A model generated the notes under the pieces. It did not search any database. It saw only the letters and a list, made by a program, of their open reading frames with translations, and had not been told where the DNA came from. The translations under genes were made by a program, and so were the position numbers. A DNA stretch of 64,000 nt from positions 13,324 to 77,323 of the forward strand of contig CAZCQG010000003.1 of NCBI GenBank assembly GCA_964500775.1. The letters are read 5' to 3'. Source of the stretch: an uncultured Campylobacterales bacterium (GTDB taxonomy: Bacteria; Campylobacterota; Campylobacteria; Campylobacterales; CAZCQG01). Below are positions 1-46,068 of this stretch, piece by piece. Each line of letters begins with the position of its first letter. Position 1 is the first letter of the stretch.

Positions 1-1730
1 TCAATAAATTTTTGAAGCGACATTTCGGAGTCACCCCCAAGGGAATATGGCTAGCGGAGCGGGTGTGGGATTCGAGTATCATCAAAGACTTGGAAGAGTG
101 CGGCATCGAGTACGTCTTGGTGGATGATTTTCATTTTATTTCAGCGGGTATCGGAAGCGAGGCGCTAGACGGATATTACGTCGCCGAAGACGGCGGTGCA
201 AGAGTAAACGTATTTCCTATAAGTAAAGAGTTGCGCTATATGATTCCTTTTCGAGGGGCGGGAAGTGTCGTAGAGCACCTAGAAGCACAGTCGCAAAACG
301 GAAAAAAATCGGCGATTATTTTTGACGACGGCGAGAAGTTCGGTGTTTGGCCAAATACGTATGATTGGGTATATAATCAAGGATGGCTGGAGCAGTTTTT
401 CGAAAAATTGAGTGCTTCGCAAAGCGTCGAAAGCGCACTATACGCGGATTATGTGCGTACGCACAAAGCACTTGGGTTAGCGTATTTGCCGCTCAATTCC
501 TACTACGAGATGGGTGAGTGGACACATCGCTCCAATGATGCTCCCGCGTATGAAAAGCTTTTTCGTAAGCTAGAGGGTGAGCACGGATACGAGTATGCTG
601 TGAAGTTTTTGCGAGGCGGAATCTGGAAAAACTTTTTTACGAAATATTACGAATCAAACCATATACACAAACGCCTTGTGGAAATCTCTTTAGCAAAAAA
701 AGAGCTCAAAAGAAAAGATTATTATTTCCCGCTGTATAAAAGTCAAGCCAATGATGTTTTGTGGCACGGAGTATTTGGCGGACTGTATTTACCGAATCTG
801 AGAAACAATACGTACAAATACATCTATGAGTGCGAAAATATGCGCTATCTCGGAAAAAAAGACTCCGTAGAGGTGTGTGATTTCAATTATGACGGGTTTG
901 ATGACGTCAAGGTAGTAAATAGCGCCTTTATCGCCTATTTTGATACAAAGCACGGGTGTATGATGTCCGAGCTTGGTTTGCGCGATAAGTTATTCAATAT
1001 GCAAAATACGCTCAAGCGCACTAAAGAGGCGTACCATATCAAAGTAGAAGACGTAATAGAGCACAAAGAAAGTGCAACCGAAGGAGACGGTATCAGCACT
1101 ATCCACACCTCAAATACCGCCGAACTTGCAGCTATGAAACGTGAGTTTGTTTTCGATAGATTCCAAAAACAATCTTTTATAGATCACATCGTCGACTACT
1201 CTTTTTGTTTTGAGAGCTTTAGAGGTGATACATACAAAGAATACGGCACGTTTTGCAATGACGCATATACTATCCAAAACGTAGGGGAGCGCGGTTTTGA
1301 AGCAGTAAGCGACGGACGTATAGTGGGAGAGCACGAGAGTTTTGGAGCATATCTCGTAAAAAAGATAGATTTTAACGGAAAGAGTATCGATTTTGCCGTA
1401 ACGCTCAATTCCGAATGCCATTACGATTTACAGTATTTCTGCGAATTTAACCTCTATTTCGCGGACGTACATGCCCTAAAAATAACGGGTGTAAACATAG
1501 AGCAGGCAGAGAATCTAGGTGTTTTAGAGCAACTAGAGATATATGATCCGTATCTCGATAAAAAGACGCACTTTGCGTTCGCACAGCCTATCGAATGTTT
1601 TTGTACTCCTATCGATACCGTGACGCAGAGCGAAAGCGGATTTGAAAAGACAAATCAAGGAATTTCGCTGTGCTTTAAGATAGGGTATAAATATTCGTTT
1701 AACTTCGGCGGTAGCCTTACTATCGGGTAG
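1..1730 (+). CDS. GH57-family glycoside hydrolase (alpha-amylase / 4-alpha-glucanotransferase type), 5' end outside window
   Basis: The frame is open from base 3 to the stop at 1728-1730. The translation has GH57 signature regions WLAERVW (nucleophile Glu), IFDDGEKFG (acid/base Asp) and SQANDVLWHGVFGGLYLPNLR. The upstream HQP/GQLE regions are missing, so the TTG at 12 is not the true start. Confidence 0.8.
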   Translation, partial: NKFLKRHFGVTPKGIWLAERVWDSSIIKDLEECGIEYVLVDDFHFISAGIGSEALDGYYVAEDGGARVNVFPISKELRYMIPFRGAGSVVEHLEAQSQNGKKSAIIFDDGEKFGVWPNTYDWVYNQGWLEQFFEKLSASQSVESALYADYVRTHKALGLAYLPLNSYYEMGEWTHRSNDAPAYEKLFRKLEGEHGYEYAVKFLRGGIWKNFFTKYYESNHIHKRLVEISLAKKELKRKDYYFPLYKSQANDVLWHGVFGGLYLPNLRNNTYKYIYECENMRYLGKKDSVEVCDFNYDGFDDVKVVNSAFIAYFDTKHGCMMSELGLRDKLFNMQNTLKRTKEAYHIKVEDVIEHKESATEGDGISTIHTSNTAELAAMKREFVFDRFQKQSFIDHIVDYSFCFESFRGDTYKEYGTFCNDAYTIQNVGERGFEAVSDGRIVGEHESFGAYLVKKIDFNGKSIDFAVTLNSECHYDLQYFCEFNLYFADVHALKITGVNIEQAENLGVLEQLEIYDPYLDKKTHFAFAQPIECFCTPIDTVTQSESGFEKTNQGISLCFKIGYKYSFNFGGSLTIG

Positions 1731-1732
1731 CG

Positions 1733-2680
1733 TTGAATCATAATGAAAAATCCCTAGATCCCATAACCGGTGCTAGGGTTTTTTATTCTTCGAGCAGGGG
1801 AAAACGACCTAATAATTATAAAAACGATGTAGATTATGCACCGTTTGAAAAAGGGAGCGAACACCTTACGCCGGATTCTCTTTTGTCTTTGCCCGATGCG
1901 ATAGACTGGGAAGTGCGTGTAGTTCCGAATAAATTTACCCCCTTTTCCATCAAGAGTGCCCCGTACGGGATGCACGAAGTACTTATCGAAGCACCGCACG
2001 CGAGTGAGGCGATAGCCGACTTTTCTCGTGCAAGATTAGAGATGATTTTTCGCGCACTTCTGCTTCGGGTAGCTTCGCACTATGAAGACGAAAAGATCAA
2101 ATATACGGCAATTTTTAAAAACAGCGGTGAAAATTCCGGCGCTACCCTTACACACCCTCATATGCAGCTTGTCGGACTTGATTATCTGCCTATCAAAATT
2201 GAGACGATGCTCAAAAATAAATACGATTTTTTTATTAAAAACGGCATCTCTTATTTACGAAGTTTGGTAGATTCAGAATTAGAATATCAAAAGAGAATTG
2301 TATTAGAAGAGAAAAATTATCTTGTTTTTTGCCCAAAGTATTCCATTACCCCTATGCAAGTAGATATAATTCCCAAGTGCAACGGCGATTTCTTACAGGC
2401 AACAGAGACAATTGAAGAGATTGCCGGCATTATGGGTACGGTATACGCCCTGCTGCAAAAGCTATCTTTGGATTCTTTTAATGCAATTTTCTATGTGTAC
2501 CCTAATATGAAACGCTATTCCGGCGTATTGCTTGAAGATTTCTACGACTGGCATATTTCTATATTGCCTAGAGATTCGAGATTTGCGGGGTTTGAGCTTA
2601 CCTGCGGCGATTTTATAAACGGTGTTTTGCCTGACGATGCAGCGATGAAATATAAAGATGCGTTAGAATCTTTTGCATAA
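1733..2680 (+). CDS. GalT-fold (HIT superfamily) hexose-1-phosphate nucleotidyltransferase / NDP-sugar phosphorylase-like protein
   Basis: 315 aa. Blocks DPITGARVFYSSSRGKRP, VVPNKFTPF, HEVLIEAPH and LTHPHMQLV line up with E. coli GalT blocks (NPLTGQW..RAKRP, TNDFAAL, FSPDH, HPHGQ). The in-frame TTG start lies 2 nt after the upstream stop. Confidence 0.65.
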   Translation: MNHNEKSLDPITGARVFYSSSRGKRPNNYKNDVDYAPFEKGSEHLTPDSLLSLPDAIDWEVRVVPNKFTPFSIKSAPYGMHEVLIEAPHASEAIADFSRARLEMIFRALLLRVASHYEDEKIKYTAIFKNSGENSGATLTHPHMQLVGLDYLPIKIETMLKNKYDFFIKNGISYLRSLVDSELEYQKRIVLEEKNYLVFCPKYSITPMQVDIIPKCNGDFLQATETIEEIAGIMGTVYALLQKLSLDSFNAIFYVYPNMKRYSGVLLEDFYDWHISILPRDSRFAGFELTCGDFINGVLPDDAAMKYKDALESFA

Positions 2681-2710
2681 AAGTGAAACGTGAAATAAGA
2701 AGGAGTCATT

Positions 2711-4150
2711 TTGAATATAGTCTATGTTTTTAGCGAACAGTTTCCTTTTTCAAAAACAGGAGGATTGGGAGATATAGCCGCCTCTTTACCGAAATTTTTC
2801 GCGAGAGAACATAATGTCGTAACCGTAACACCGTTCTACTCTTTTATGGATAAAGAGGCACTCGGTATAGAAGAGATAGGGATGCGATTGGAGTTCTGTG
2901 TAGATAAAAAGGAGTACGAGTTTGATGTCTATATGAGCAAGCATGATGGGCTTACGACCTATTTTTTACACAACAGTTATTTTTTTAATCGCAAAGAGAT
3001 GTATGGTTCATATCTCGATAACTATCTAAGATTCGGGATTTTTTGCTACGGTGTGATTGAGCTTGTAAAGTATATCGATTTTGAAGCGGATATATACCAC
3101 GTGAATGATTGGCAAACCTCTCTCATCCCTTTATTACTTAAAGAGAAATACGCTAACGGTGCAAAATTGGTACTCACGATACATAATCTCTCCTATCAAG
3201 GTATCGCGACAAAAAAAGCGATGAAAGACCTAGACATCGATTGGAATCACTTCAATATGGATAAGGTCGAGTTTTACGACCATTTCAATTTTCTCAAAAC
3301 CGGCATATTCTTTAGCGATGCGTTTACTACCGTATCGGATAGTTATGCGCAAGAGATTCAGACGAAAGAGTACGGGTGCGGAATTAGCGATTTTATCAAA
3401 ACCAATGCAAATAAGCTGCACGGCATTCTGAATGGGATAGATTATGACGAATGGGATACAAAAAAGGATAAGTTCCTCTTGCATAAATATGATGCGAAAA
3501 CATTGGATAAAAAATTATTAAATAAAATCGAACTTTGTAAAGAATTTAATCTAAAAGATGCAGAAGGTAGACCTTTATTTATCCTTATAAGTAGACTTGT
3601 GAAGCAAAAAGGTGTAGATTTTTTACTCGAAAATTATGAATTTTTGAAGGCTTTGGAAGCTAATTTTTTCATTTTAGGGGACGGCGATAACGAAAATATA
3701 AAAAAAGTAAAAGAAACATTTGATTTTAGTGATAATTTTGTTACATTTATAGGCTATAATGAAGAGTTAGCGCATCGTCTCTATGCTTCAGCCGATTTTT
3801 TGATGATGCCTTCTCTGTATGAGCCGTGCGGTCTCAATCAGCTTATCGCCCTTAGATACGGAGCTGTACCTATCGTCAGAGCCACGGGTGGACTAAAAGA
3901 GACTATAGCCGATTATACGCTAGAAAAACAAGATAGCAAGGGGCGAGGGATAGTTTTTGAGTCACCGGACGGTTTTTCATTTATGGTAGCCTTGATGCGG
4001 GCATTTAGCCTTTTTGCCAATAGAAACAAATACGTAACGCTTGTAGAAGATAATATGCAATGCGAGTTTGACTGGTGTCATTCCGCTCAAAAGTACGAAC
4101 TATTATATAAAACTCTAGTAGGAGCAGTGGATGGAGATAAAAAACAGTAG
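2711..4150 (+). CDS. glgA: glycogen/starch synthase (GT5)
   Basis: 479 aa. N-terminal SKTGGLGDIA (KTGGL motif) and C-terminal MMPSLYEPCGLNQL are present. An AAGGAG Shine-Dalgarno sits 5 nt upstream of the TTG start. Confidence 0.9.
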   Translation: MNIVYVFSEQFPFSKTGGLGDIAASLPKFFAREHNVVTVTPFYSFMDKEALGIEEIGMRLEFCVDKKEYEFDVYMSKHDGLTTYFLHNSYFFNRKEMYGSYLDNYLRFGIFCYGVIELVKYIDFEADIYHVNDWQTSLIPLLLKEKYANGAKLVLTIHNLSYQGIATKKAMKDLDIDWNHFNMDKVEFYDHFNFLKTGIFFSDAFTTVSDSYAQEIQTKEYGCGISDFIKTNANKLHGILNGIDYDEWDTKKDKFLLHKYDAKTLDKKLLNKIELCKEFNLKDAEGRPLFILISRLVKQKGVDFLLENYEFLKALEANFFILGDGDNENIKKVKETFDFSDNFVTFIGYNEELAHRLYASADFLMMPSLYEPCGLNQLIALRYGAVPIVRATGGLKETIADYTLEKQDSKGRGIVFESPDGFSFMVALMRAFSLFANRNKYVTLVEDNMQCEFDWCHSAQKYELLYKTLVGAVDGDKKQ

Positions 4151-4823
4151 CGAGGAGATCAAAAGAGAGAGCCTCAAAGACTTCAATGTGTCATCACATA
4201 CGCATGCGGTAGATTCTTTTGCCGACGAACTCAAAGAGTTTAAAAAAGAGGATACTTACGAGATTCCCGATCGATACTTTATCAACAACATAGTTCTCCT
4301 TCCCGTAAATTCGGAAACGGGATATTTTTATTGGGAAGTGACGCTTGATTTTGTAGCGGGAAAATGCGATAGAGAGATTGAAAATTTTGTCGTAAGGGTT
4401 TATGAAATCGATAGCGCGACTGCTTTGGGGCAGTATGATATTTACGGGCAGAAAGGGGGATATTATTTCTCTACGCATAGTGCGAATAAAAATATTTTTG
4501 CTTTACTCGGTGTTTTTGATGAGAAAGGGGAATTTATCGAGATTCTAAGATCCAATACCGTGAAGATGCCCTCCGATTTTATTATCGAAAGTGACGAGAC
4601 GATGTGGGCGGACAAACTTGAAGATTGGACGGAGATACTCAATGCTTCGCTAGAAAAAATCGAAATAGGTTCGTCGGAGAATATGATCAAAGAGATTGAG
4701 AGCATAAAAAGATACCATAAGCTACGTGTTGATTTGAGTGGAAGAGTGGGCGCGAGTTCGCTTAGCTCCGGAGAGTTTTTAGGGAGTTCGAATACCTCCA
4801 GCTTTAGCTTGAGCAAGAAGTAA
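4131..4823 (+). CDS. DUF4912-like protein of glycogen gene clusters (function unknown)
   Basis: 230 aa. The ATG overlaps the glgA 3' end by 20 nt. The block IVLLPVNSETGYFYWEV resembles the DUF4912 core (llprdP.w.y.yWei). The C-terminal tail is Ser/Gly-rich and low in complexity. Confidence 0.5.
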   Translation: MEIKNSSEEIKRESLKDFNVSSHTHAVDSFADELKEFKKEDTYEIPDRYFINNIVLLPVNSETGYFYWEVTLDFVAGKCDREIENFVVRVYEIDSATALGQYDIYGQKGGYYFSTHSANKNIFALLGVFDEKGEFIEILRSNTVKMPSDFIIESDETMWADKLEDWTEILNASLEKIEIGSSENMIKEIESIKRYHKLRVDLSGRVGASSLSSGEFLGSSNTSSFSLSKK

Positions 4824-4834
4824 GGAGGAGGGTT

Positions 4835-6412
4835 ATGTTAGGATATTGGATACCCGTACTCCACTCTCATTTGCCGTTTGTAAAGCATCCCGATTACGAT
4901 TATTTTTTGGAAGAACATTGGCTATTTGAAGCAATAAGCGAGTGTTATATTCCGATTTTGATGCGTTTGAAGCAGCTAGAAGAAGAGGGTGTGGATTATA
5001 GACTTACCACTTCCGTCACGCCACCTTTGGCAGAGATGCTTGACGATAGCCATTTGATGGAAAAATATCTAAGGCATCTAGATAGAACCATAGAGCTTGC
5101 CGTAAAAGAATCCAATAGAATAGGCGAGGGCGACGAGTTTTATCATATGCCGAGATTCTACATAGATAGATATGTAAAGATAAAAAATTTTTTTACCGAT
5201 TTTTTGGATTACAACGTCCTCAACGGATACAGATATTTTATCAAGAGCGGGAAACTAGAGGTTATCACCTGCGGTGCAACGCACGGATTCTTACCCCTCC
5301 TTTCGGTGAACAACAAAGCGGTAGAGGTGCAGATTGAGGTTGCCGTACAGTCCCATGTGAAGCATTTCGGCATCCCGCCAAACGGCATTTGGCTACCGGA
5401 GTGTGCATACTATAATGGACTGGATGAGGTGCTTGCGAAATACGGCATTCGATTCTTTATCATAGATTCGCACGGTTTAGTGTATGGGACTCCGACCCCA
5501 AAATACGGAGTATTCGCTCCTGCGTATACGCATCACGGCGTAGCGGCATTCGGCAGAGACCCCGAGAGTAGCAAACAGGTTTGGAGCTCCAAAGAGGGGT
5601 ATCCCGGCGATGTCGATTATCGTGATTTTTATAAAGATATAGGATACGAACTTGATTATGACTATATTAGACATTATATCGATCCCGACGGCGCGAGGGT
5701 TTTTACCGGCTTAAAGTACTATCGCGTCACGGGGGAGGGTGATGATAAGAGAGCCTACGTACCTGAAAATGCGATGATAAAGGCAAGAGAACATGCGCAA
5801 AACTTTCACTTCAATAGAGTGAAACAATGTGAATACCTCTCTGGTTTGATGGATAGAAAGCCAATGATAGTTTCCCCGTACGATACGGAATTATTCGGTC
5901 ATTGGTGGTTTGAAGGACCGGATTTTCTTTATTATCTATTTAAAGAGATGGATGCACACAAGAACATCAAGGCAATAACGCCTATGGAGTATCTCTCGCA
6001 AGAGACGAAGAATCAAGTAATCAATCCTTCGCCTTCCTCGTGGGGAGACAAAGGGTACTACGACGTATGGCTCAATAGCGGAAATGATTGGATATATAGG
6101 CATTTACACCAAATGGCGGATAGTATGTGCACGTTGGCTAGAGAGAATGAACACGGAGTAGAGTTTAATCTCCATAGGGTGCTCAATCAGATGGCAAGAG
6201 AGCTACTGCTTGCTCAAAGTAGCGATTGGGCGTTTTTGATGACGACAAAAACTGCCGTAGAATATAGCATTCGCAGAACCAAAGAGCACATTTCAAACTT
6301 TTTGAAACTACAGTCTATGTTTGAAGATAGAGAGATTGATTTTGATTTTTTAAGTCGCTGTGAGACGAAAAACTCCATATTTAGTTTCTTGGATTATAAG
6401 GTTTTTCTATAA
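4835..6412 (+). CDS. GH57-type 1,4-alpha-glucan branching enzyme
   Basis: 525 aa. The N-terminus GYWIPVLHSHLPFVKHP, then WLPECAY and PYDTELFGHWWFEGP, are typical of GH57 branching enzymes (Thermus/Thermococcus type). AAGGAGG lies upstream of the ATG. Confidence 0.8.
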   Translation: MLGYWIPVLHSHLPFVKHPDYDYFLEEHWLFEAISECYIPILMRLKQLEEEGVDYRLTTSVTPPLAEMLDDSHLMEKYLRHLDRTIELAVKESNRIGEGDEFYHMPRFYIDRYVKIKNFFTDFLDYNVLNGYRYFIKSGKLEVITCGATHGFLPLLSVNNKAVEVQIEVAVQSHVKHFGIPPNGIWLPECAYYNGLDEVLAKYGIRFFIIDSHGLVYGTPTPKYGVFAPAYTHHGVAAFGRDPESSKQVWSSKEGYPGDVDYRDFYKDIGYELDYDYIRHYIDPDGARVFTGLKYYRVTGEGDDKRAYVPENAMIKAREHAQNFHFNRVKQCEYLSGLMDRKPMIVSPYDTELFGHWWFEGPDFLYYLFKEMDAHKNIKAITPMEYLSQETKNQVINPSPSSWGDKGYYDVWLNSGNDWIYRHLHQMADSMCTLARENEHGVEFNLHRVLNQMARELLLAQSSDWAFLMTTKTAVEYSIRRTKEHISNFLKLQSMFEDREIDFDFLSRCETKNSIFSFLDYKVFL

Positions 6413-7252
6413 TTGAAAGAGCTTATCGTTGATGCCGGCGGTACGAATTTTAGAGCACTTTTAGAGACTGACGGGAGAGAGACGAAGAGATTTCACGCCG
6501 ATTATACACAACGAGGTTTTTTGGCATTGCTCGAAGAGGGCGTGTGTCAACACGGACCCGATGTCGTGTCAATATCCTTTGCGGGGCAAATAGAGGATGG
6601 GACGATAAAATCTTCTCCGAATATCCCCATAGCTCCGATGAATATCGCTCGTTATTTCCGAGAAAAGTATGATGTCGAACTTTTTATAGATAATGATTTG
6701 AATTGCGCGGCATTGGCGGAGAGTGAGTATTTCGGCGTAGATCATACGCTAGTCGTGTATTCGGGTACGGGGCTAGGAGGTGCGTATGTGAGCGGGGGAA
6801 AAATTTTGCGCGGCGCACATAATCAAGCTCTTGAGATTGGGCATATTCCCTACAAAAAAACACCGTTATTGTGCGGATGCGGAAAAAGCGATTGTATAGA
6901 GCTTTTTGCGTCGGGAAGCGGTATCGCAAAAAGAATTAAACTACTGGGTTTAGAAGACAAAAACGAACTTGAGAATCTCATCAAAAGCGAAGATACACGT
7001 TTGCGAGAGATCTATGATGATTACATCGACGCAATGGGTTTTGCACTAGGAAGTGCCATTACGCTGCTCAATCCTTCGCTGATCGTTTTAGGCGGAGGAG
7101 TCTATAATGCAAATCGCGAGAGAGTACATCACGCACTCGTCGAATCTGCTAAAAAATACGCTATGCCGGTATCAATAGATTCTCTACGGTTTGAGAGCTC
7201 GCGACTTGCCGATGCGGGGATACTTGGAGCGAGATTGCTAAAGAGGCTTTAG
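6413..7252 (+). CDS. ROK-family glucokinase
   Basis: 279 aa. The TTG start directly abuts the previous stop. Motifs include N-terminal DAGGTN, the GTGLGG sugar-kinase motif and the ROK zinc motif CGCGKSDCIE. Confidence 0.8.
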   Translation: MKELIVDAGGTNFRALLETDGRETKRFHADYTQRGFLALLEEGVCQHGPDVVSISFAGQIEDGTIKSSPNIPIAPMNIARYFREKYDVELFIDNDLNCAALAESEYFGVDHTLVVYSGTGLGGAYVSGGKILRGAHNQALEIGHIPYKKTPLLCGCGKSDCIELFASGSGIAKRIKLLGLEDKNELENLIKSEDTRLREIYDDYIDAMGFALGSAITLLNPSLIVLGGGVYNANRERVHHALVESAKKYAMPVSIDSLRFESSRLADAGILGARLLKRL

Positions 7253-8994: not shown

Positions 8995-10245
8995 TTACCC
9001 TTTTATGTTTTTTATATGATTAAACGTCCATTCAAAAGATTCTTTGAGCATATCGATATAGCTGTTCATATCGATATTGAGTTTGTCCAAAAGCTCGATA
9101 AGTTGTTTGAAGTCGTTTTTTTCCGAAGCGATAGAGAGCTCGAGCATTACGCCGAGTACTCCGGAGCGGTTGATGAGGGCGTCTTTGATGTCGTTTTCAA
9201 AATTCGTGTCCATAATAACCGATTTGATGTCGGAGTTAAAAAGGGCATCTAAGGTGGATAAGATTCCTACTAAAAATGCTTTTTCATTAAGCCTCCTGTC
9301 TACTTTTTTCGTGAGAGATTGCATAAGCTTGGCTCGAATCATCCCGCTTTCTAAAAGCGAAAGGGAATATTTACTCATTTTAGAATCGGTGTACAAGAAG
9401 AGCAAAAGCCAAGTTTTGAGTGTTTTTCTACCGAGATAGTTTATAGCTTGCCTAATAGAGCTAATCTCATTTGTTTTCGCGACGGAAGCTCTATTGACGT
9501 ATTGTAATAAATTGATAATGATGTCGGGATAGCTTCTCAATGTTTTTACTATAGATTCGGTATCTACGTCTCTATCGAGTTGATTATATATTTGAAACAC
9601 CCCTTTTGCGCCGGGGGTGAGAGAGTGAAACTTGCTAGTATCGGGTTTGTGAAAGAAGAAACCTTGAAAGTGGGAAGCTCCGCAGTTCTTTGCTTCTTCG
9701 TATTTCTCTAGAGATTCGATTTTCTCTCCGATAACGACAATTTCGTCTTTGAGCGATTTCACGTACTTTATAAATTCAAACGCCTCTTTAAAACCGACGA
9801 CCGAAAAATCGATTTTAATAAATTGCAGGTAGTCGATAAGTTCTTTAACCGATTTTTTTGATGCGTTGTCGCAATGAATATTATCGATCGCGATCCCAAT
9901 CCCTTTGTCTTTGATTTTTTGGAGTATCTCTAGATTCTCCGCTTTTGCATCATAAGAAGCTCTAACCTCGAATATAAAATTATTAAAATCCATAACTTCC
10001 AGTATATCTTCGGCGATACTAAGATCACCCCCGATATTTATGAAAACTTTATGATTTTCGAAAATATTTTTCGTATAGATATAGTTTGCGATGATGAAGA
10101 CGACATTCGCGGTGGCTTTTCTATCATTAGGTTTGTTTGCGAGAGGGTTTTCCCCGTCTCTGTAAAAGACTTCATAGTACTCTATTTTTCCGGATGTATC
10201 AAAAATCGGCTGTCTTCCGAAATATATGCAATCGCTTGTTTCCAT
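8995..10245 (-). CDS. EAL-HDOD two-domain c-di-GMP signalling protein (COG3434-type) with a partly degenerate EAL site
   Basis: 416 aa. EAL blocks are RQPIFD, YEVFYR (ExLxR), INIGG, FEVRAS, AIDNIHCD (in place of DDFGTG), IKIDFS, GEKIES (EGVE) and FQGFFF. The C-terminal half has an HDOD-like block (IRQAINYLGRKTLKTWLLLFLY). Confidence 0.8.
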   Translation of the reverse strand: METSDCIYFGRQPIFDTSGKIEYYEVFYRDGENPLANKPNDRKATANVVFIIANYIYTKNIFENHKVFINIGGDLSIAEDILEVMDFNNFIFEVRASYDAKAENLEILQKIKDKGIGIAIDNIHCDNASKKSVKELIDYLQFIKIDFSVVGFKEAFEFIKYVKSLKDEIVVIGEKIESLEKYEEAKNCGASHFQGFFFHKPDTSKFHSLTPGAKGVFQIYNQLDRDVDTESIVKTLRSYPDIIINLLQYVNRASVAKTNEISSIRQAINYLGRKTLKTWLLLFLYTDSKMSKYSLSLLESGMIRAKLMQSLTKKVDRRLNEKAFLVGILSTLDALFNSDIKSVIMDTNFENDIKDALINRSGVLGVMLELSIASEKNDFKQLIELLDKLNIDMNSYIDMLKESFEWTFNHIKNIKG

Positions 10246-35847: not shown

Positions 35848-36390
35848 ATGGCATGCAAAACTCAAGGTAAATTCGCTACTACTTTTGGATCCTCAACGAT
35901 AAAAGAGGGGGAGAAAGAGTATGAAGAGGGGATGAGGCTTGGGGCGTTTTTGTCGGAAAACGGCTTTAGCGTAAAGTGCGGCGGGTACGGCGGATTGATG
36001 GAGGCCGTTTCGAAAGGCGTACATAAAAACGGAGGAAATTGTATAGGTGTTTGCGTAGAGTATTTTGAAGATAAGCGCCCGCAAAACCCTTATATTAGTC
36101 AAAAGATCATTGCCAAAGATTTGATCGAGCGTTTGAGAATTCTCATCGAAGATAGTGAGCTTTTTATTATACAAAAAGGGTCTATCGGGACGCTCAATGA
36201 ACTTTTTTTGGTTTGGTGTTTGGAATATACGAAAATGCTAGAATCCGCTAGAATCGTTCTTATCGGAAAAGAATATGAATTCCTGAAACATACGGGACTT
36301 ATTCCAAGTGCAGAAGTGGATAGGTTATATTTTTTCGAAGATGCCGAATCTTTTATCGCTAACTTTACTACTTTGGAATCGGCTCGTTAG
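35848..36390 (+). CDS. LOG / TIGR00730-like Rossmann-fold protein (often mis-annotated as lysine decarboxylase)
   Basis: 180 aa. CGGYGGLMEAVSKG corresponds to the GGGxGxMG block. QKGSIGTLNELF corresponds to PGGxGTxEE, with substitutions. Confidence 0.6.
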   Translation: MACKTQGKFATTFGSSTIKEGEKEYEEGMRLGAFLSENGFSVKCGGYGGLMEAVSKGVHKNGGNCIGVCVEYFEDKRPQNPYISQKIIAKDLIERLRILIEDSELFIIQKGSIGTLNELFLVWCLEYTKMLESARIVLIGKEYEFLKHTGLIPSAEVDRLYFFEDAESFIANFTTLESAR

Positions 36391-37455
36391 ATGTCGGCGC
36401 GAAGAGAGACGAAGGTAATTAGCGTCGGGGGAATCAAGATAGGCGGAGATAACCCCGTTTCGGTGCAATCGATGACTTTTTCCAAAACCGCGGACGTGAA
36501 AAGTACGGTGGAGCAAATCAATCGCCTCCATTTTGCGGGGTGTGACATCGTGCGTGTGGCGGTGAGTGATGAAGAAGATGCACTCGCGCTCAAAGAGATC
36601 AAAAAACAAATATCGCTTCCGCTCGTGGCAGATATTCATTTTCGATACAAATTAGCGCTCATTGCTGCCGAAACCGTCGATTGCATCAGGATAAATCCGG
36701 GCAATATCGGGGACAAAGGGAGAGTCAAAGCCGTCGTGGATGCGTGCAAACAAAGAAATATCCCGATTCGCATAGGGGTAAACGGCGGTAGTTTGGAAGA
36801 GCAGTTTGAACAAAAATACGGTGCTACGTCAAAAGCGATGATAGAATCGGCATTGTACAATATCAAATTACTCGAAGATTTCGATTTTACCGATATAAAA
36901 ATCTCAATGAAGGCAAGCGACGTGCAACGAACTATCGAAGCATACCTCGGTTTGGCTCCGCTTGTGAGATACCCATTTCACATCGGAGTGACGGAGGCAG
37001 GGACGCTTTTTAGCTCTACGGTCAAAAGCTCCATCGGGCTTGGGTATCTCTTGCTAGAAGGGATCGGTGATACGATTCGCGTCTCTATCACCGGAGAATT
37101 GGAAAAAGAGATAGAGGTGGCTCGGGCGATACTCAAACACTCCGGTCGCGCGAAGGGGGGGATTAATATCATCTCTTGTCCTACGTGCGGAAGACTCGAA
37201 TCAGACCTCGTGAGTGCCGTAAAGGTAGTCGAAGAGCGTTTGAAAGATGTCAAGCAACCCCTCAATATATCGGTAATGGGGTGTGCGGTAAACGCTATCG
37301 GCGAAGCAAAGCACGCCGATGTAGCAATCGCATTTGGAAAAAACGGTGGACTGGTGATAAAAAAAGGTGAAATTTTAGGAAAATTCAAAGGGGATACCCT
37401 TTTGGAGCGCTTTATAGAAGAGGTTTATAAAGCTGCTTTGGAATACAAGGAATAA
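36391..37455 (+). CDS. ispG: 4-hydroxy-3-methylbut-2-en-1-yl diphosphate synthase
   Basis: 354 aa, with typical GcpE blocks ([27 protein letters not shown]). The ATG directly follows the upstream TAG. Confidence 0.95.
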
Positions 37456-37457
37456 CG

Positions 37458-38693
37458 ATGGAACAATTTTTACGGACGGCCAAAGAATCGCAAACCGTCT
37501 TAAACGGCATAAAAGGTGAAGCGAAAAACAACGTGCTACGCGCTATGAGTGAGGGCTTACGCACACATATGGGTGTGATCATAGAAGCCAACAAAAAAGA
37601 TATGGAATACGCTACCCAAGCGAAGCTAAGTAGTGCACTTTTGGATAGACTCCTTTTGGATGAAAAAAGAATCGAAGCGATGGCTCAAAGCATCGAAGAG
37701 ATAGCGATGATGAACGAGCCTGTAGGCAGGGTGCTAGATGGATGGATTAATAAAGACGGACTAAAAATAGAAAAAGTGAGTGTCCCTATAGGTGTCATCG
37801 GCATCATTTACGAATCGCGCCCGAATGTCACAAGCGACACGGCGGCTTTGTGCTTTAAGAGCGGTAACGTGTGTATACTCAAAGGGGGAAAGGAGGCTGC
37901 CCATAGCAATGAGGCTATCGCGTCTGTTTTACAAGGCGTACTAGAAGCGCACGGGCTCCCTAAAGAGATTATCTCTTTGATTCCAGATGCGAGCAGAGAA
38001 GGGGTCGCAAAACTCATAAAATTTGACAAATATATTGATCTTATCATCCCAAGAGGAGGCGAGACACTTATCCGTTTTGTGTTAGATAATGCGACCGTCC
38101 CCGTCGTCAAACACGACAAAGGACTTTGCCACGTCTATCTCCACAAAGATGCCGATATGAACAAAGCACTCCCGATTATTATAAATGCGAAGGTGCAAAG
38201 ACCGGGTGTTTGTAATGCGATGGAAACTTTGCTTATCGATGAAAGTATCGCTAGTAACAATCTTTTAAATATTCAAAATGAATTTTTAAAACACGGAACG
38301 AAACTCAAAGGATGTCAAAAAACGCAGAGAATCATCGATATAGAAGCGGCGAGCGAAGAGGATTTTGATACCGAATATTTGGAAAATATTCTTTCGATAA
38401 AAGTGGTAAGCGACCTTGATGAAGCGATAAGACATATCAATACGCATGGATCACAGCATTCCGATTCTATCGTGACCGAGAGCTATGAAGCGAGCGAGAG
38501 ATTCTTAAATGAGATCGATTCGGCGTGCGTGTATGTCAACGCTAGTACGCGCTTTACCGATGGAGGCGTGTTTGGCTTTGGGGCAGAAGTGGGGATAAGC
38601 ACCAATAAACTCCACGCGAGAGGTCCTATGGGAATCAACGACCTCACGACGTATAAATTTATGATTCGCGGTAGCGGTCAGACTAGAAAATAA
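37458..38693 (+). CDS. proA: glutamate-5-semialdehyde dehydrogenase
   Basis: 411 aa of the aldehyde dehydrogenase family, with a ProA-type catalytic Cys context (VCNAMETLLI). Confidence 0.9.
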   Translation: MEQFLRTAKESQTVLNGIKGEAKNNVLRAMSEGLRTHMGVIIEANKKDMEYATQAKLSSALLDRLLLDEKRIEAMAQSIEEIAMMNEPVGRVLDGWINKDGLKIEKVSVPIGVIGIIYESRPNVTSDTAALCFKSGNVCILKGGKEAAHSNEAIASVLQGVLEAHGLPKEIISLIPDASREGVAKLIKFDKYIDLIIPRGGETLIRFVLDNATVPVVKHDKGLCHVYLHKDADMNKALPIIINAKVQRPGVCNAMETLLIDESIASNNLLNIQNEFLKHGTKLKGCQKTQRIIDIEAASEEDFDTEYLENILSIKVVSDLDEAIRHINTHGSQHSDSIVTESYEASERFLNEIDSACVYVNASTRFTDGGVFGFGAEVGISTNKLHARGPMGINDLTTYKFMIRGSGQTRK

Positions 38694-38707
38694 CCTTAGG
38701 AGTAAAT

Positions 38708-38917
38708 ATGCCGTATGTAAATATTAGGGTAGCAGGGAGTCTCACTATCGAGCAAAAAAGAGAGATAGCAAAAGATGTCAGCGATAGTCTAAACAGAGTA
38801 GCGGGCAAGCCTAAAGAGAGCTGCTATATCACTTTTGATGAAGTACCGAGGACAAATTGGGCAAAGGGGTATGATATACTTGATGATGTCGATAAAAGAC
38901 AAGGAGAGAAGAGATAG
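38708..38917 (+). CDS. 4-oxalocrotonate tautomerase family protein
   Basis: 69 aa. The N-terminal MPYVNIRV provides the catalytic Pro-1 after Met removal, and the beta-alpha-beta size matches the family. Confidence 0.8.
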   Translation: MPYVNIRVAGSLTIEQKREIAKDVSDSLNRVAGKPKESCYITFDEVPRTNWAKGYDILDDVDKRQGEKR

Positions 38918-39516
38918 CTCCCATTCTCTCTATAAATAACCTCTCATTCGGCTACAAAAAAGAGAAACTTTTATATAGGAGCTTTTCTCTCTCCGTGGGC
39001 AAAGGCGAGCTTGTATCACTCGTAGGACCTAGCGGGATAGGAAAAAGCACGTTGTTTGATATTATCGCAGGCTTTATCAAGCCGCTAGAGGGGAATCTTA
39101 CAGTCGGCAAAATATCGCAGATTTATCAAGATCCTTACGATTCGTTCCACCACTCCTATTCGATTTTAGATCAGATCGTCGATACGGTAGGCAGGATGGA
39201 AGATCTAGACTTACTACTGTCTCGTCTCGGGTTGGAATATCGAGTGTTGGAGAAAAAGCCATTTGAATTATCGGGCGGGCAGTTACAGCGTTGTAGTATT
39301 TTGCGGGCGGTACTGATGAAACCTGATTTGATACTTGCAGATGAGCCTACTAGCGCGCTTGACAATGTGACCGCATTGGAAGTGATGCGACTTTTGGTCG
39401 GGCTATTGGATGATGTAGGTATATTGCTTATCACCCATGATTTGGAATTGGCAAAATGGTGTAGCGACAGGATTGTCGATTTGGAGAGTTTGAATTTCGC
39501 GGAGGAGACACGATGA
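38914..39516 (+). CDS. stand-alone minimal ABC-type ATPase (DppF/NikE-like NBD); start codon uncertain
   Basis: Motifs present are Walker A GPSGIGKST, Q-loop/QDPYDSF, signature LSGGQLQR, Walker B LILADEPTSALD and H-loop ITHD. The conserved N-terminal strand (PILSINNLSFGYKKEKLLYRSFSLSV) is encoded upstream of the first canonical start (GTG 38995). In that stretch only ATA (38914) and ATT (38923) are available as starts. Confidence 0.65.
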   Translation: MAPILSINNLSFGYKKEKLLYRSFSLSVGKGELVSLVGPSGIGKSTLFDIIAGFIKPLEGNLTVGKISQIYQDPYDSFHHSYSILDQIVDTVGRMEDLDLLLSRLGLEYRVLEKKPFELSGGQLQRCSILRAVLMKPDLILADEPTSALDNVTALEVMRLLVGLLDDVGILLITHDLELAKWCSDRIVDLESLNFAEETR

Positions 39517-40817
39517 ATTTTCAAAAAATGCACATACTGGGCAAGTATACTGATGAGGCTTTTGATACGTTTTATGAGAGGATCTTCACTACCGAGCATT
39601 TTTCAATATTTTTCGACAATGTCATCGGAATCAGATTTTTTCTCAAAAAACAGCAAAAGAATTTTCTCAAATCTTTTGACGATGACCAAAAAGGGTTTGA
39701 ACAGCGCTATAAAAAGCTAGGAGAATTCCATTTTAATAGCAACATCCCTTACGCGAATTTTTTACTCGGGACAAAAATTCTTAGCGAGATTTTTATAGAG
39801 ATAGTTGTTAAGTATAACCTAGATTCCTCATTGATAGCCCTCATCACCAACTACTTCTACGACGCTACGGAAGTGATGGCAAAAGTCTATTTAAAGATGA
39901 TGATTCGTAACGATAAAAAAGATCTCAAAGCGCTACTGAAAAGCTATGAATACTCGGTGCATAAAGAGGAAAAGGTAATACTTATCGCCCATTTTGAATG
40001 GCTCATCAAGCTCATAGACGCGATAGATCACGAAGATGAGACCTTGGCTCCGAATCGGGAAGCCGATGATGATATTAATAAAAATACTACGCAAATACTC
40101 GACAGAATAGACCCCTCTACCTTTAATCATTTCAATAAAAAATATATTGAAAATATTTACGCAAAAATGAGAATCGATGCTAAAAACATCTTCTTTTTTA
40201 TCAAAGAAAAGCGTTATGCCGAAGCCTTGCCTATTTACACGAGTTTGCTAGAGATTTACAAGCTCACGCTACTACTCGGCAATATCCTCTCTAGCTCTAT
40301 CTCGATGAAGACCGAAAAAATGTATTTGGAGCAAAGCAAGCTTGCCACTTACGATGTTTTAACAGGAGCGTTCAATAGACGAAAATACGAAGAGATAATA
40401 GATTATCAATTAAGTCATGCGCAAAGGTATGGCAGGAATCTTAGTCTAGCGATGATAGACATAGACTATTTTAAAAAAATCAACGATAGATACGGACATC
40501 TAAGGGGTGATGAGATCTTAAAGATTCTAAGTCAAATAGTTTTAAGCAGTATACGCTCTACCGATTATTTTGTCCGGTACGGCGGAGAAGAGTTTCTCAT
40601 CCTTTGCCCCGAAACGAATATCGAGGGAGTGGTGCGGATGGTCGAGAAGCTACGAGATAAAATTGCTACTTTTGATTTCGGCATAGGGGAAAAAGTGAGT
40701 GTGAGTATAGGGGTGACGCTTGCTTTAAAAGAGGACACTTCGAAGGATTTGCTAGACAGGGTAGATAAACTGCTCTATAAAGCCAAAAACGAGGGGCGAG
40801 ATAGGGTTTGTCACTAG
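39513..40817 (+). CDS. diguanylate cyclase (GGDEF) with globin-coupled-sensor-like N-terminal domain
   Basis: 434 aa. The C-terminus has an active-type GGEEF with an RxxD I-site (RSTD-YFVRY-GGEEF). The N-terminal blocks FYERIF...LGEFHFNSNIPYANFLLG parallel E. coli DosC FYRIV...VAEVHARIGIPVEIVEMG (distal Tyr, proximal His). The ATGA junction overlaps the ABC ATPase stop. Confidence 0.75.
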   Translation: MNFQKMHILGKYTDEAFDTFYERIFTTEHFSIFFDNVIGIRFFLKKQQKNFLKSFDDDQKGFEQRYKKLGEFHFNSNIPYANFLLGTKILSEIFIEIVVKYNLDSSLIALITNYFYDATEVMAKVYLKMMIRNDKKDLKALLKSYEYSVHKEEKVILIAHFEWLIKLIDAIDHEDETLAPNREADDDINKNTTQILDRIDPSTFNHFNKKYIENIYAKMRIDAKNIFFFIKEKRYAEALPIYTSLLEIYKLTLLLGNILSSSISMKTEKMYLEQSKLATYDVLTGAFNRRKYEEIIDYQLSHAQRYGRNLSLAMIDIDYFKKINDRYGHLRGDEILKILSQIVLSSIRSTDYFVRYGGEEFLILCPETNIEGVVRMVEKLRDKIATFDFGIGEKVSVSIGVTLALKEDTSKDLLDRVDKLLYKAKNEGRDRVCH

Positions 40818-41497
40818 GTTTTTGAGCTAAAAATCACTACTCGTTGCTCTTTGTTGGCATAAAACTCTTTTTCCAAGAGGAAATATTTTTGGAAAATATA
40901 GTCGTGTACGGGCACGACGTATATGATGTATATCTGTTTTTTGCCTTTTTTCGCGAAAGTATAGAGCCTTTCTGCTACGATTTTCGTACTCTCCTCATCA
41001 AACGGATTATAGAGATAAAACGTAGTCACATCGGTCGGAAAAGCTATTTTTTTTGCATCCCCGATAAATACTTCTCCGTGATGCAGGGCAAGTTTTTCAA
41101 GGTTGTTTTTTGATATATCTGCGAGGTATTTTGAGTGCTCGATGCCGTAGAGTTTTTTAAATCCGAATTTTGAGGCAATAAGGAGTGCTTTGCCTTTCCC
41201 GCTCCCTATATCGCAAAATCCTCCTTCTGATACCTCTTTTGGAAGATAGCGCAGAGCCAGCCTGATGGCTTCGGGTCTTGATGCTTGGTATCTTTTTGAG
41301 CTATGTTTATTTTCGGACGGAATATCTAATTGATGGGATTCGTAAATGCCTGCTGTATCTACGGACATTTTGATGTCGTAAAAGAGTTCCGAAAACCACA
41401 AAAGGGTCTTTTGTTTGTAAGGACGGTGTTGATTTGGTTTTGCCCTCCAGGGGGAGGAGGGCATTGGGGGGTTTGATGACTTTGCGCCAAGTGACAT
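40814..41497 (-). CDS. class I SAM-dependent methyltransferase (substrate unknown)
   Basis: 227 aa, with motif I FCDIGSGKGKALL. The N-terminal FYDIKMSVDTAG...YQASRP resembles a methyltransferase family that has a GVDT...YEP lead-in. No NPPY/DPPY DNA-methyltransferase motif is present. Confidence 0.7.
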   Translation of the reverse strand: MSLGAKSSNPPMPSSPWRAKPNQHRPYKQKTLLWFSELFYDIKMSVDTAGIYESHQLDIPSENKHSSKRYQASRPEAIRLALRYLPKEVSEGGFCDIGSGKGKALLIASKFGFKKLYGIEHSKYLADISKNNLEKLALHHGEVFIGDAKKIAFPTDVTTFYLYNPFDEESTKIVAERLYTFAKKGKKQIYIIYVVPVHDYIFQKYFLLEKEFYANKEQRVVIFSSKT

Positions 41498-45339: not shown

Positions 45340-46068
45340 TTGAGCGAATCACTAAAAAAAATCGACCCCGAATCACAAGAATTCCAAGAGGAATTACAAA
45401 ACACCATTAAATTTACCGACAAAGTAGTTTCGCAATTTGAATTTGCCTATAACCCCGACGTAGAGATAGTCCAGTCGGTACAGTTTGGTCTGACGAGAAA
45501 CAAACTTATCTACGGCAAAAGATACTGCCCATGCTTCTTCGTGACCCAAAGTGCCGAGGATAGAATCTGCCCCTGTAAACCTGCGCTCAATGACGAGATT
45601 CCTAGCGAAGGAAAGTGTCACTGCGGGATATTCTGTACGCTCGAATATGCAGAAGAGCAGAAATGTATCGAAGAGCTAGAAGACGCGGCACACACCCACT
45701 CTAGGGGACTTAGCAAAGAAGAGTGCGAAATGCTCCTCAAAAAATCGCAACTCGACGGCGATGAACTCGAATCGCTTTTAGAGGCTAGGGCGCTCGGAAT
45801 GGTGGAATTTTATCTCGTAGACGTGCGGGAGTGGATGGAATATAGACACGGAAGAATTAGAGGCGTAGATTTCCTCGTGCCGACCACCACGTTCTATGAA
45901 TCGGTAAAGCAATTAGACGACGTAAAACAAAAAACAATCATTTTGTATTGCCACGTCGGAAGCAGAAGTGCCTACTGCCAAAGGATATTAAAGGACTTCG
46001 GTTTTGGTCATGTAGGGAATCTCACGTATGGAATCGTAAGTTATAAAGGTGATTTAGATAGAGGTTAG
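45340..46068 (+). CDS. ferredoxin-thioredoxin reductase catalytic-subunit-like domain fused to a rhodanese domain
   Basis: 242 aa. The N-terminal half has the CPC..CPC..CHC array (YCPCFF, ICPCKP, KCHCGIFC). The C-terminal half has a rhodanese active-site loop YCHVGSRSAY. The TTG start has AAGGA 7 nt upstream. Confidence 0.7.
   Translation: MSESLKKIDPESQEFQEELQNTIKFTDKVVSQFEFAYNPDVEIVQSVQFGLTRNKLIYGKRYCPCFFVTQSAEDRICPCKPALNDEIPSEGKCHCGIFCTLEYAEEQKCIEELEDAAHTHSRGLSKEECEMLLKKSQLDGDELESLLEARALGMVEFYLVDVREWMEYRHGRIRGVDFLVPTTTFYESVKQLDDVKQKTIILYCHVGSRSAYCQRILKDFGFGHVGNLTYGIVSYKGDLDRG

Follow-up and report, generated by a model that had tools for sequence, protein, structure and literature searches.

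The window analysed here, a stretch of 64,000 nucleotides from an uncultured Campylobacterales bacterium, contains a compact run of co-directional genes ordered 5' to 3' as a LOG-like gene, ispG, proA, a tautomerase gene, an ABC ATPase gene and a diguanylate cyclase gene, with the cyclase gene at the 3' end (Table 1). The palindrome CTAG (40814-40817) is common to the stop codons of the cyclase gene and a convergent methyltransferase-like gene. The stop codon of the tautomerase gene (TAG, 38915-38917) overlaps the ATA codon at 38914 of the ATPase frame in the tetranucleotide ATAG. The ATPase and cyclase genes were originally predicted to overlap by ATGA at 39513-39516, and this was reproduced: the cyclase start codon ATG occupies 39513-39515 and the ATPase stop codon TGA 39514-39516.

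Table 1. Genes and sequence features at the locus, given as positions of the window.
Feature	Position	Strand	Basis or remark
LOG-like gene, ispG, proA	35848..38693	+	Packed co-directional run upstream; gaps of 0, 2 and 14 nt
4-oxalocrotonate tautomerase-family gene, 69 aa	38708..38917	+	Pfam Tautomerase, 45.9 bits
Shine-Dalgarno-like AAGGAG, 7 nt 5' of ATA 38914	38901..38906	+	Read from sequence
Predicted minimal orphan ABC ATPase, 200 aa read from ATA 38914	38914..39516	+	Frame open from 38896
First canonical in-frame start of the ATPase, GTG	38995..38997	+	Gives 173 aa
Walker A GPSGIGKST, G38-T46	39025..39051	+	
Q-loop region IYQDP, Q72; Dpp/Opp/Nik-type QDPY motif next	39121..39135	+	
ABC signature LSGGQ, aa 119-123	39268..39282	+	
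Walker B LILADE (139-144, catalytic Glu) and D-loop SALD (147-150)	39328..39363	+	
H-loop ITHD, H175	39430..39441	+	
ATPase C-terminal extension, about 8-10 aa past the end of every orthologue	39480..39516	+	Orthologue alignments
Predicted globin-coupled diguanylate cyclase, 434 aa	39513..40817	+	
Sensor-globin domain, aa 1-150	39513..39962	+	Profile, fold, conserved residues
Helical middle domain, CZB-derived, aa ~151-276	39963..40340	+	CZB region of DgcZ covered by the profile and NCBIfam alignments
GGDEF catalytic domain, aa 278-431	40344..40805	+	Pfam GGDEF, 136 bits
I-site RSTD (RxxD), aa 348-351	40554..40565	+	Five residues upstream of GGEEF
Putative active site GGEEF, aa 357-361	40581..40595	+	
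Methyltransferase-like gene, convergent to the cyclase gene	40814..41497	-	Weak methyltransferase Pfam matches

An overlap of exactly 4 nt was found in 7 of the 43 co-directional adjacent ORF pairs of the window, including nadA-psd and psd-ate. Such an overlap is uninformative, as it is seen between functionally unrelated genes of the window too. The original prediction was silent on the frequency of these overlaps and on the ATA codon at 38914. A scan of 35.6-42.1 kb for promoters and terminators gave nothing better than shuffled sequences, and no operon boundaries were found in this region. A fusion of the tautomerase and the ATPase by programmed -1 frameshifting was ruled out by a TAA codon in the ATPase frame (38893-38895) and by the lack of a slippery heptamer in an 18-nt window.

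The ATPase matched Pfam ABC_tran with 85.7 bits (cut-off 25). It had been predicted to carry all ATP-site motifs, and the set was found complete and in canonical order (A-loop, Walker A, Q-loop, signature, Walker B, D-loop, and H-loop), running from the A-loop aromatic residue Y14 to H175. Compared to Mycobacterium tuberculosis DppD, the ATPase is about 18 aa shorter from Walker A to the Q-loop (residues 63-66 of the window ATPase correspond to chain residues 349-370), in agreement with the predicted shortening of about 15 aa relative to DppF/NikE-type domains. The deletion is common to all ATPase orthologues aligned. The C-terminal extension is present in the window copy only and runs into the cyclase start.

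The closest likeness of the ATPase is to the DppF/OppF/NikE clade. Among solved structures it matches M. tuberculosis DppD best, the QDPY..F.. motif typical of the clade after the Q-loop is also present, and its relatives carry the JGI label 'peptide/nickel transport system ATP-binding protein'. It differs from the clade in the shortened segment described above and in having no C-terminal oligopeptide-transporter domain, and its scores for the NikE (104 bits vs. 332) and NikD (94 vs. 319) equivalogs fall far short of the cut-offs. Unlike the genes of Dpp/Opp/Nik importers, it has no adjacent gene for a permease, a binding protein or a second ATPase in the lineages examined. In the window itself, nearly all ORFs of at least 150 aa at 27.6-51 kb and most of those at 55.6-63 kb were scanned without a match to any permease or binding-protein family, as the original prediction of no such gene nearby had it, and no second ABC domain was found in the 64 kb.

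Some single-domain ABC ATPases function although no classical transporter is encoded next to them, e.g., SufC, PhnK/PhnL, and LptB, and ABC domains with a short segment occur in ABC-F proteins and ABCE1. The window ATPase resembles SufC, PhnK/PhnL, and LptB in being encoded by a stand-alone gene, but their partner genes are not adjacent here. Its length matches that of domain 2 of EttA almost without gaps (residues 4-188 vs. 323-508). Its sequence affinity is nevertheless to the Dpp/Nik clade.

Judged from sequence comparison, the window ATPase is a member of an unnamed and uncharacterised Campylobacterota-wide family of minimal orphan ABC ATPases of 187-207 aa with 55-68% identity to the window copy. 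The matches listed included at least 120 homologues in this size range at 58-68% identity (P0001, which is 99% identical, apart), and these come from Nitrosophilus, Nitratiruptor, and Campylobacterales. The window ATPase shares the family traits, i.e., the short Walker A to Q-loop segment, the QDPY.SFH motif and an identity of at least 55% over the full length. A literature search for an orphan ABC ATPase described in Campylobacter or Helicobacter returned nothing relevant.

Orthologues of the ATPase were compared at about 65 loci, of which 27 are genomic and 38 metagenomic. The ATPase gene follows a YjdM gene in Nitrosophilus and Nitratiruptor, and it is followed by hemH in Arcobacteraceae. 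In Sulfurimonas it follows a dUTPase_2 gene, with convergent genes for CrcB and a PlsC-like acyltransferase opposite, an arrangement found in 21 of 23 genomic loci and in most metagenomic loci. Locus L038 has the order proA, ABC ATPase, S4, trpD, and proA is kept upstream of the ATPase gene both there and in Nitratiruptor. In L039 and L040 an orthologous tautomerase gene lies directly 5' of the ATPase gene, which is followed by four tRNA genes. The closest relatives of the window ATPase (65-66% identity) have proA and/or the tautomerase gene kept upstream, while the cyclase gene is absent. None of the loci with annotated flanking genes had a permease gene beside the ATPase gene, and in representative loci of each lineage the neighbours annotated by Pfam did not include an ABC permease or binding protein.

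The cyclase consists of a sensor globin, a helical middle domain and a GGDEF domain. Its N-terminal region had been predicted to contain blocks parallel to those of the DosC globin. The FY and H....IP blocks were found to align with the haem-pocket residues of DosC, with F20, Y21, and H73 corresponding to F42, Y43, and H98, which in DosC are the distal Phe-Tyr pair and the proximal His of the haem pocket (PMC5549716). F20/Y21 (distal B9/B10) and H73 (proximal F8) are invariant in 20 relatives, and so is P79. The globin profile matched the globin domains of globin-coupled sensors (GCS) 7o0i, 4uii, 4zva/4zvb, and 1or4. As a Foldseek search with the full-length model returned mostly GGDEF domains, a separate model of the globin domain was made for the fold search. 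The best PDB folds for the AF2 model of aa 1-150 (pLDDT 92) were all sensor globins with TM scores of 0.6-0.73, and GCS or other globin domains made up nearly all of the top 20 or so PDB matches. Both the profile and the fold comparison point to a sensor-globin fold.

The middle domain is helical in the predicted structure (helices at 151-279) and derives from a CZB domain, in which three His and one Cys bind zinc. Pfam CZB gave no match to the window cyclase. The domain keeps H160 (in AHFEW), whereas the columns of the Cys and HxxxH zinc ligands hold D/N and MRIDA. These ligands are present in the relatives P0180, P0147, and P0177, and the score of P0180 also exceeds the threshold of Pfam CZB. 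In the GGDEF domain D316, D318, N324, D325, and K425 are conserved, and Foldseek matched the domain to solved GGDEF domains with an rmsd of about 2 Å. The GGEEF motif and the RxxD I-site were both located as predicted. On the evidence of sequence and model, the cyclase is a GCS diguanylate cyclase of the haem-globin type with a putatively active GGEEF and an RxxD I-site.

Relatives of the cyclase are few. An exhaustive HMMER scan of 1.84 billion representatives gave only 75 clusters (defined at 50% identity), with at most 36% identity to the window cyclase. A word-indexed search for homologues of the sensor region retrieved nothing but the cyclase itself, a profile search gave five short matches, and an exact-sequence look-up of the cyclase found no contig. 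The sensor module made up of the globin and middle domains was found fused to histidine kinases and to an EAL domain in other proteins, and it can therefore be regarded as a self-contained sensor. No paper with the term 'globin-coupled' was among the ten top-ranked results of a literature search on Campylobacterota genera.

The cyclase shares its three-part architecture with DosC (EcGReg/YddV) and BpeGReg, as well as the distal Phe-Tyr and proximal His at equivalent positions and a GGEEF with an RxxD I-site. Its GGDEF domain is 39% identical to that of DosC in structural alignment, whereas globin identity to DosC and BpeGReg is only about 12-16%. It also differs from both in belonging to a small separate subfamily and in having a middle domain recognisably derived from CZB. 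The middle and GGDEF domains align along almost all of the zinc-regulated CZB-GGDEF protein DgcZ (YdeH), covering positions 19-285 of NF007380 and residues 17-284 of 4h54. As in DgcZ, a CZB domain with the Cys and HxxxH ligands is retained in some members of the subfamily (P0180), where it is Pfam-significant. Compared to DgcZ, the window cyclase has an added N-terminal globin and keeps the first His (H160) only, and zinc control is therefore unlikely. Whereas dosC is adjacent to the gene for a haem-PAS EAL phosphodiesterase in dosCP, the window cyclase gene adjoins the ABC ATPase gene and the convergent methyltransferase-like gene, with no DosP-like gene. The original prediction had also counted an EAL-HDOD module as a further c-di-GMP unit of the window. 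This gene exists (8995-10245) and is the sole EAL gene found, but it lies 30 kb from the ATPase-cyclase locus and nothing links it to the latter. Altogether, the cyclase is a new, divergent representative of an already known type of protein.

Whether both genes encode what their motifs suggest was considered for each of them. Orthologue alignment places the ATG or TTG start of the other ATPases at codon 38914, which in the window is ATA and not a canonical start; no canonical start lies upstream of GTG 38995. The NCBI and Logan gene calls take this GTG and predict the truncated protein of 173 aa (P0001), which would lack strand beta1 and the A-loop Tyr14. An independently assembled Logan contig has ATA at this position too. 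These observations would fit an early pseudogene, in which the start was mutated to ATA, GTG 38995 gives a truncated, non-functional product or no product is made, and the cyclase gene lies behind a dying gene. We consider this unlikely, because the frame is intact over its 200 codons and no catalytic motif is lost, and because identity to the L039 orthologue is 58% over the 24 residues that precede GTG 38995 compared to 66% overall, which gives no sign of relaxed constraint. Since the ATA is placed 7 nt after a strong Shine-Dalgarno-like sequence, an ideal spacing, and overlaps the tautomerase stop codon, full-length ATPase would probably be made by weak or re-initiation-type translation from 38914. 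Expression of the full-length protein is uncertain, given the ATA start. For the cyclase, the N-terminal domain might be globin-like in shape only, binding a lipid or another ligand instead of haem and not acting as a gas sensor. The Pfam Protoglobin score of the window cyclase taken alone is below the gathering threshold (18.7 vs. 25 bits), Foldseek E-values are modest (about 1e-2) with structure-based identities of 11-18%, and the fold matches also include 3pmd and 3zta, sensor domains with a globin fold that bind no haem. Protoglobin did match 20 of 22 relatives at E-values up to 0.01, the best being 2.8e-9 and some above the threshold. As the haem-pocket residues shared with DosC are invariant in the subfamily, and as the best profile and fold matches are haem-binding GCS domains, a non-haem domain is improbable.

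The original prediction further proposed that the ATPase and the gas-sensing cyclase form a signalling arrangement. In such a two-protein unit ATP binding or hydrolysis by the ATPase would act on the gas-regulated cyclase, or the ATPase itself would be under c-di-GMP control, and translational coupling would enforce their stoichiometry. The ATGA overlap and the lack of a permease near the ATPase speak for it, and so does the fact that in three independent lineages a GGDEF-family gene is the next gene on the 3' side of the ATPase gene, i.e., the window, L009 (a co-directional MASE6-GGDEF gene after a 46-nt gap) and Nitratiruptor L003 (a convergent GGDEF-EAL gene). This is somewhat above the expectation from a GGDEF gene density of about 1.5-2% at these loci. 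However, the three GGDEF proteins carry unrelated sensor domains and one of the genes is convergent, overlaps of 4 nt are common among unrelated genes in the window, and the globin-plus-middle module serves other outputs without any ATPase. A globin cyclase gene was found downstream of the ATPase orthologue in none of the 27 genomic and 38 metagenomic loci, the closest relatives included, and none of the three loci of the cyclase relatives P0122, P0123, and P0124 had an ABC gene. The pair is found in a sole genome, and there the ATPase start codon is degenerate. With the gene pair not conserved, the proposed signalling unit is unsupported, and we give it very little credence. We find it just as hard to believe that the ATPase family consists of soluble regulators recurrently tied to c-di-GMP enzymes and not of transporter subunits, with the overlap representing a nascent ATP- or c-di-GMP-dependent control of the gas-sensing cyclase. 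In a tblastn comparison the methyltransferase-like gene of the window showed no homology to the methyltransferase gene upstream of P0122.

The sequence data indicate that the adjacency of the ATPase and cyclase genes is confined to the window lineage and is an ordinary juxtaposition, not a conserved signalling pair. We therefore regard it as highly probable that these are two functionally independent genes that stand side by side and close the compact run on its 3' side, with the following course of events. Through an insertion or a rearrangement, the cyclase gene would have come to lie at the 3' boundary of the ATPase gene, which is variable, in the window lineage only. The ATPase frame would thereby have gained about 10 codons, and the ATGA overlap would have arisen. 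Signs of such an insertion are the ATPase extension in the window copy only and the lower GC content of the cyclase gene (37.9%) compared to its neighbours (44.4% in the ATPase gene, 44.6% in the LOG-ispG-proA run and 41.4% in each of the tautomerase and methyltransferase genes). The two genes are probably co-transcribed and likely translationally coupled, and the proteins would thus be made together. They may still interact physically, but the sequence analysis gave no sign of joint action. The ATPase, which would derive from the Dpp/Opp/Nik clade, may form the usual ATP-sandwich dimer and power a partner encoded elsewhere in the genome. In the cyclase, haem would be bound to H73, Y21 would stabilise the ligand on the distal side, and the gas sensed would be O2, NO or CO. 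The signal would cross the middle domain, four helices of CZB origin that have lost zinc binding, and arrive at a catalytically competent GGEEF domain on which RxxD would exert product inhibition, as it does in DosC and BpeGReg.

A true pairing of the ATPase with the cyclase would have been a new route for feeding cellular ATP status into c-di-GMP signalling. As the evidence points to a lineage-specific juxtaposition, this claim is to be dropped. The locus offers two leads instead, modest and without surprises, which are suited to annotation and biochemistry. One is a phylum-wide family of orphan ABC ATPases of about 190 aa without known partner or function. The other is a small and very divergent subfamily of globin-coupled sensors with a CZB-derived linker, some members of which may be dual haem/zinc sensors, since they still carry the zinc ligands.

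Sequence profiles and predicted fold both mark the cyclase as a true globin-coupled sensor (GCS). A word-indexed search with it found no relative, and an exhaustive scan gave 75 clusters, every one at 36% identity or less. The window cyclase alone scored a sub-threshold 18.7 bits against Pfam Protoglobin; 20 of 22 aligned relatives matched this family. A profile of residues 1-150 matched solved sensor globins, namely a Vibrio RsbR-type GCS (7o0i), AvGReg (4uii), DosC (4zva/4zvb), HemAT (1or4), and BpeGReg (6m9a). Residues F20-Y21 and H73, which are invariant in the cyclase subfamily, aligned with F42-Y43 and H98 of DosC, whose distal and proximal positions in the haem pocket were established experimentally (PMC5549716). 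The AlphaFold2 model of the same 150 residues had a pLDDT of 92, and its best PDB matches were GCS globin domains (TM 0.6-0.73). The DosC-like N-terminus proposed in the original prediction was thus borne out by both profile and fold.

The region from residue ~151 to 276 was found to be helical, and the alignment of this middle region plus the GGDEF domain covered the zinc-regulated cyclase DgcZ at near full length. The window cyclase has only the first of the zinc ligands (H160), and one relative, P0180, passed the Pfam CZB threshold. The GGDEF domain (136 bits) carries the expected GGEEF with an RxxD I-site, here RSTD five residues upstream, has conserved metal- and GTP-binding residues, and superposed on solved GGDEF domains at ~2 Å. 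The divergent globin-plus-middle module recurs with other outputs: the relatives P0128, P0129, and P0131 have it fused to PAS-histidine kinase-receiver parts, and in P0148 it is placed after an EAL domain. P0200 (526 aa), in the 90% cluster of the closest relative P0122, was sequenced as part of an assembled eukaryotic transcriptome (eukprot, TRINITY contig), where it is probably a bacterial contaminant.

Translated from 38914, the ATPase frame shows the complete ABC motif set that had been predicted: Y14, Walker A (38-46), Q72, LSGGQ (119-123), Walker B with its Glu (139-145), SALD, and H175; the Pfam ABC_tran match is 85.7 bits. By sequence it falls with the Dpp/Opp/Nik clade, but it scores far beneath the equivalog cut-offs of both NikD and NikE. 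Between query residues 63 and 66, the alignment to M. tuberculosis DppD skips from chain residue 349 to 370; ~18 beta-subdomain residues between Walker A and Q-loop are therefore absent, close to the ~15 originally estimated. More than 100 proteins, 187-207 aa long and 58-68% identical to the ATPase, were among the matches listed by the word-indexed search; their sources are Nitrosophilus, Nitratiruptor, Campylobacterales, and many metagenomes. We identified 27 orthologous loci in species-representative genomes (Sulfurimonas, Arcobacteraceae, and other Campylobacterota) and a further 38 in a metagenome scan. Since the short segment, together with a QDPY.SFH motif, is common to all orthologues, it is a family trait rather than a mark of decay in the window ATPase.

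The ATPase frame is open from 38896 but has no ATG, GTG, or TTG ahead of GTG 38995, which is why gene calling gave a 173-aa product (P0001) in which strand beta1 and the A-loop tyrosine would be missing. Over the 24 residues ahead of this GTG, identity to the closest long orthologue is 58% vs. 66% overall, and the segment has therefore been under protein-level constraint. ATG or TTG starts of orthologues line up with ATA 38914, located 7 nt past AAGGAG and overlapping the tautomerase stop (ATAG). Translation from this ATA would be weak or re-initiation-dependent. Less probably, the start codon was lost very recently; a separately assembled Logan contig carries the same ATA.

Features of the window and of orthologous ATPase loci
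Locus	Feature	Position	Strand
Window	ORF, 572 aa	7272-8990	-
Window	EAL-HDOD protein	8995-10245	-
Window	WD40-type protein, 710 aa	33554-35686	-
Window	Run of six closely packed genes	35848-40817	+
Window	LOG-like gene	35848-36390	+
Window	ispG	36391-37455	+
Window	proA	37458-38693	+
Window	Tautomerase, 69 aa	38708-38917	+
Window	ABC ATPase frame	38914-39516	+
Window	ATGA, ATPase stop/cyclase start	39513-39516	
Window	GGDEF protein (cyclase), 434 aa	39513-40817	+
Window	CTAG palindrome	40814-40817	
Window	Ferredoxin-thioredoxin reductase catalytic-chain/rhodanese fusion	45340-46068	+
L002 (Nitrosophilus)	YjdM/PhnA zinc-ribbon gene, ABC	5666-6579	
L003 (Nitratiruptor)	YjdM/PhnA zinc-ribbon gene, ABC	5691-6600	
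L019 (Sulfurimonas)	Run ending in orphan ABC ATPase	1143-6570	

The ATPase and the cyclase end a closely packed run of six genes. The cyclase is followed by a convergent methyltransferase-like gene, and one CTAG palindrome provides the stop codons of both, leaving no space for a terminator. Just upstream of the run, on the opposite strand, lies a TTG-initiated gene for an N-terminal WD40-type beta-propeller with a long helical C-terminal part and many weak matches to eukaryote-type WD40 families. In agreement with the original prediction, permease and binding-protein families were absent from the genes scanned (nearly all ORFs of at least 150 aa at 27.6-51 kb and most at 55.6-63 kb). The 64-kb window holds no second ABC domain. 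The EAL-HDOD protein was also found to be real. Its EAL match (44 bits; HDOD, 34 bits) is limited to profile positions 82-236, and the domain may therefore be N-terminally degenerate; the adjoining 572-aa ORF had no Pfam match at E ≤ 1e-4.

The neighbors of the ATPase vary with lineage. In Nitrosophilus/Nitratiruptor a YjdM/PhnA gene overlaps the ABC gene stop to start, and in Nitratiruptor both come after proA and cheB/cheR genes. In Sulfurimonas the order is an ovoA-like gene (DinB_2, FGE-sulfatase, and methyltransferase; 699 aa), a class I/II aminotransferase, a 76-aa ORF, a PNPOx-like gene, a dimeric dUTPase, and, after 0-12 nt, the ABC gene; this run is strongly conserved in L019 and 22 other Sulfurimonas loci. 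There the ATPase faces convergent CrcB and PlsC-like acyltransferase genes (21 of 23 genomic loci and most metagenomic ones). Arcobacteraceae have ABC followed by ferrochelatase. Among the closest relatives, L038 (65% identity) has proA, ABC, an S4-domain gene, and trpD, and L039/L040 (66%) have tautomerase, ABC, and four tRNA genes. The upstream context (proA and/or tautomerase) is thus kept in the closest relatives while the downstream boundary is variable. Two Sulfurimonas-type metagenomic loci, L049 and L071, have an extra ~0.8 kb, not a GGDEF gene, between ATPase and CrcB, which is further evidence for the 3' boundary as an insertion site.

The two proteins were proposed to form a signaling pair. 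Their identities were confirmed, but the pairing was not supported: no globin cyclase was found at ~65 orthologous ATPase loci (27 genomic, 38 metagenomic), and no ABC gene at three loci of cyclase relatives. The sequence comparison thus argues against a unit. The fusion of the globin-plus-middle module to histidine kinases and EAL would itself be expected of a self-contained sensor. The ATGA overlap, although correctly described, is functionally little informative because 7 of 43 co-directional pairs in the window, among them nadA-psd and psd-ate, share a 4-nt overlap. GC content is 37.9% in the cyclase, lower than in the ATPase (44.4%) and in the housekeeping genes upstream (44.6%). The cyclase gene would have inserted at the 3' boundary of the ATPase gene and displaced its original stop, which fits the ~10 extra C-terminal ATPase residues that occur in no orthologue and end in ATGA.

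A broader functional link between the ATPase family and GGDEF-family genes might be read from their direct 3' adjacency in three independent lineages, i.e., the window (globin cyclase), L009 (MASE6-GGDEF, co-directional), and Nitratiruptor (GGDEF-EAL, convergent), which is more than expected from a GGDEF density of ~1.5-2% at ATPase loci. The 3' boundary, however, is a hot spot of rearrangement, and such sites are the usual landing places of accessory signaling genes; we consider the link very improbable.

The ATPase belongs to an uncharacterized, ordinary-looking orphan ABC family, and the cyclase adds a new, divergent member to the known kind of globin-coupled cyclases. Its relatives P0180, P0147, and P0177, in which the CZB Cys and HxxxH zinc ligands are kept (alignment A1, columns ~200-260), may be dual sensors, each a single cyclase with both haem-based and zinc/HOCl-type sensing.
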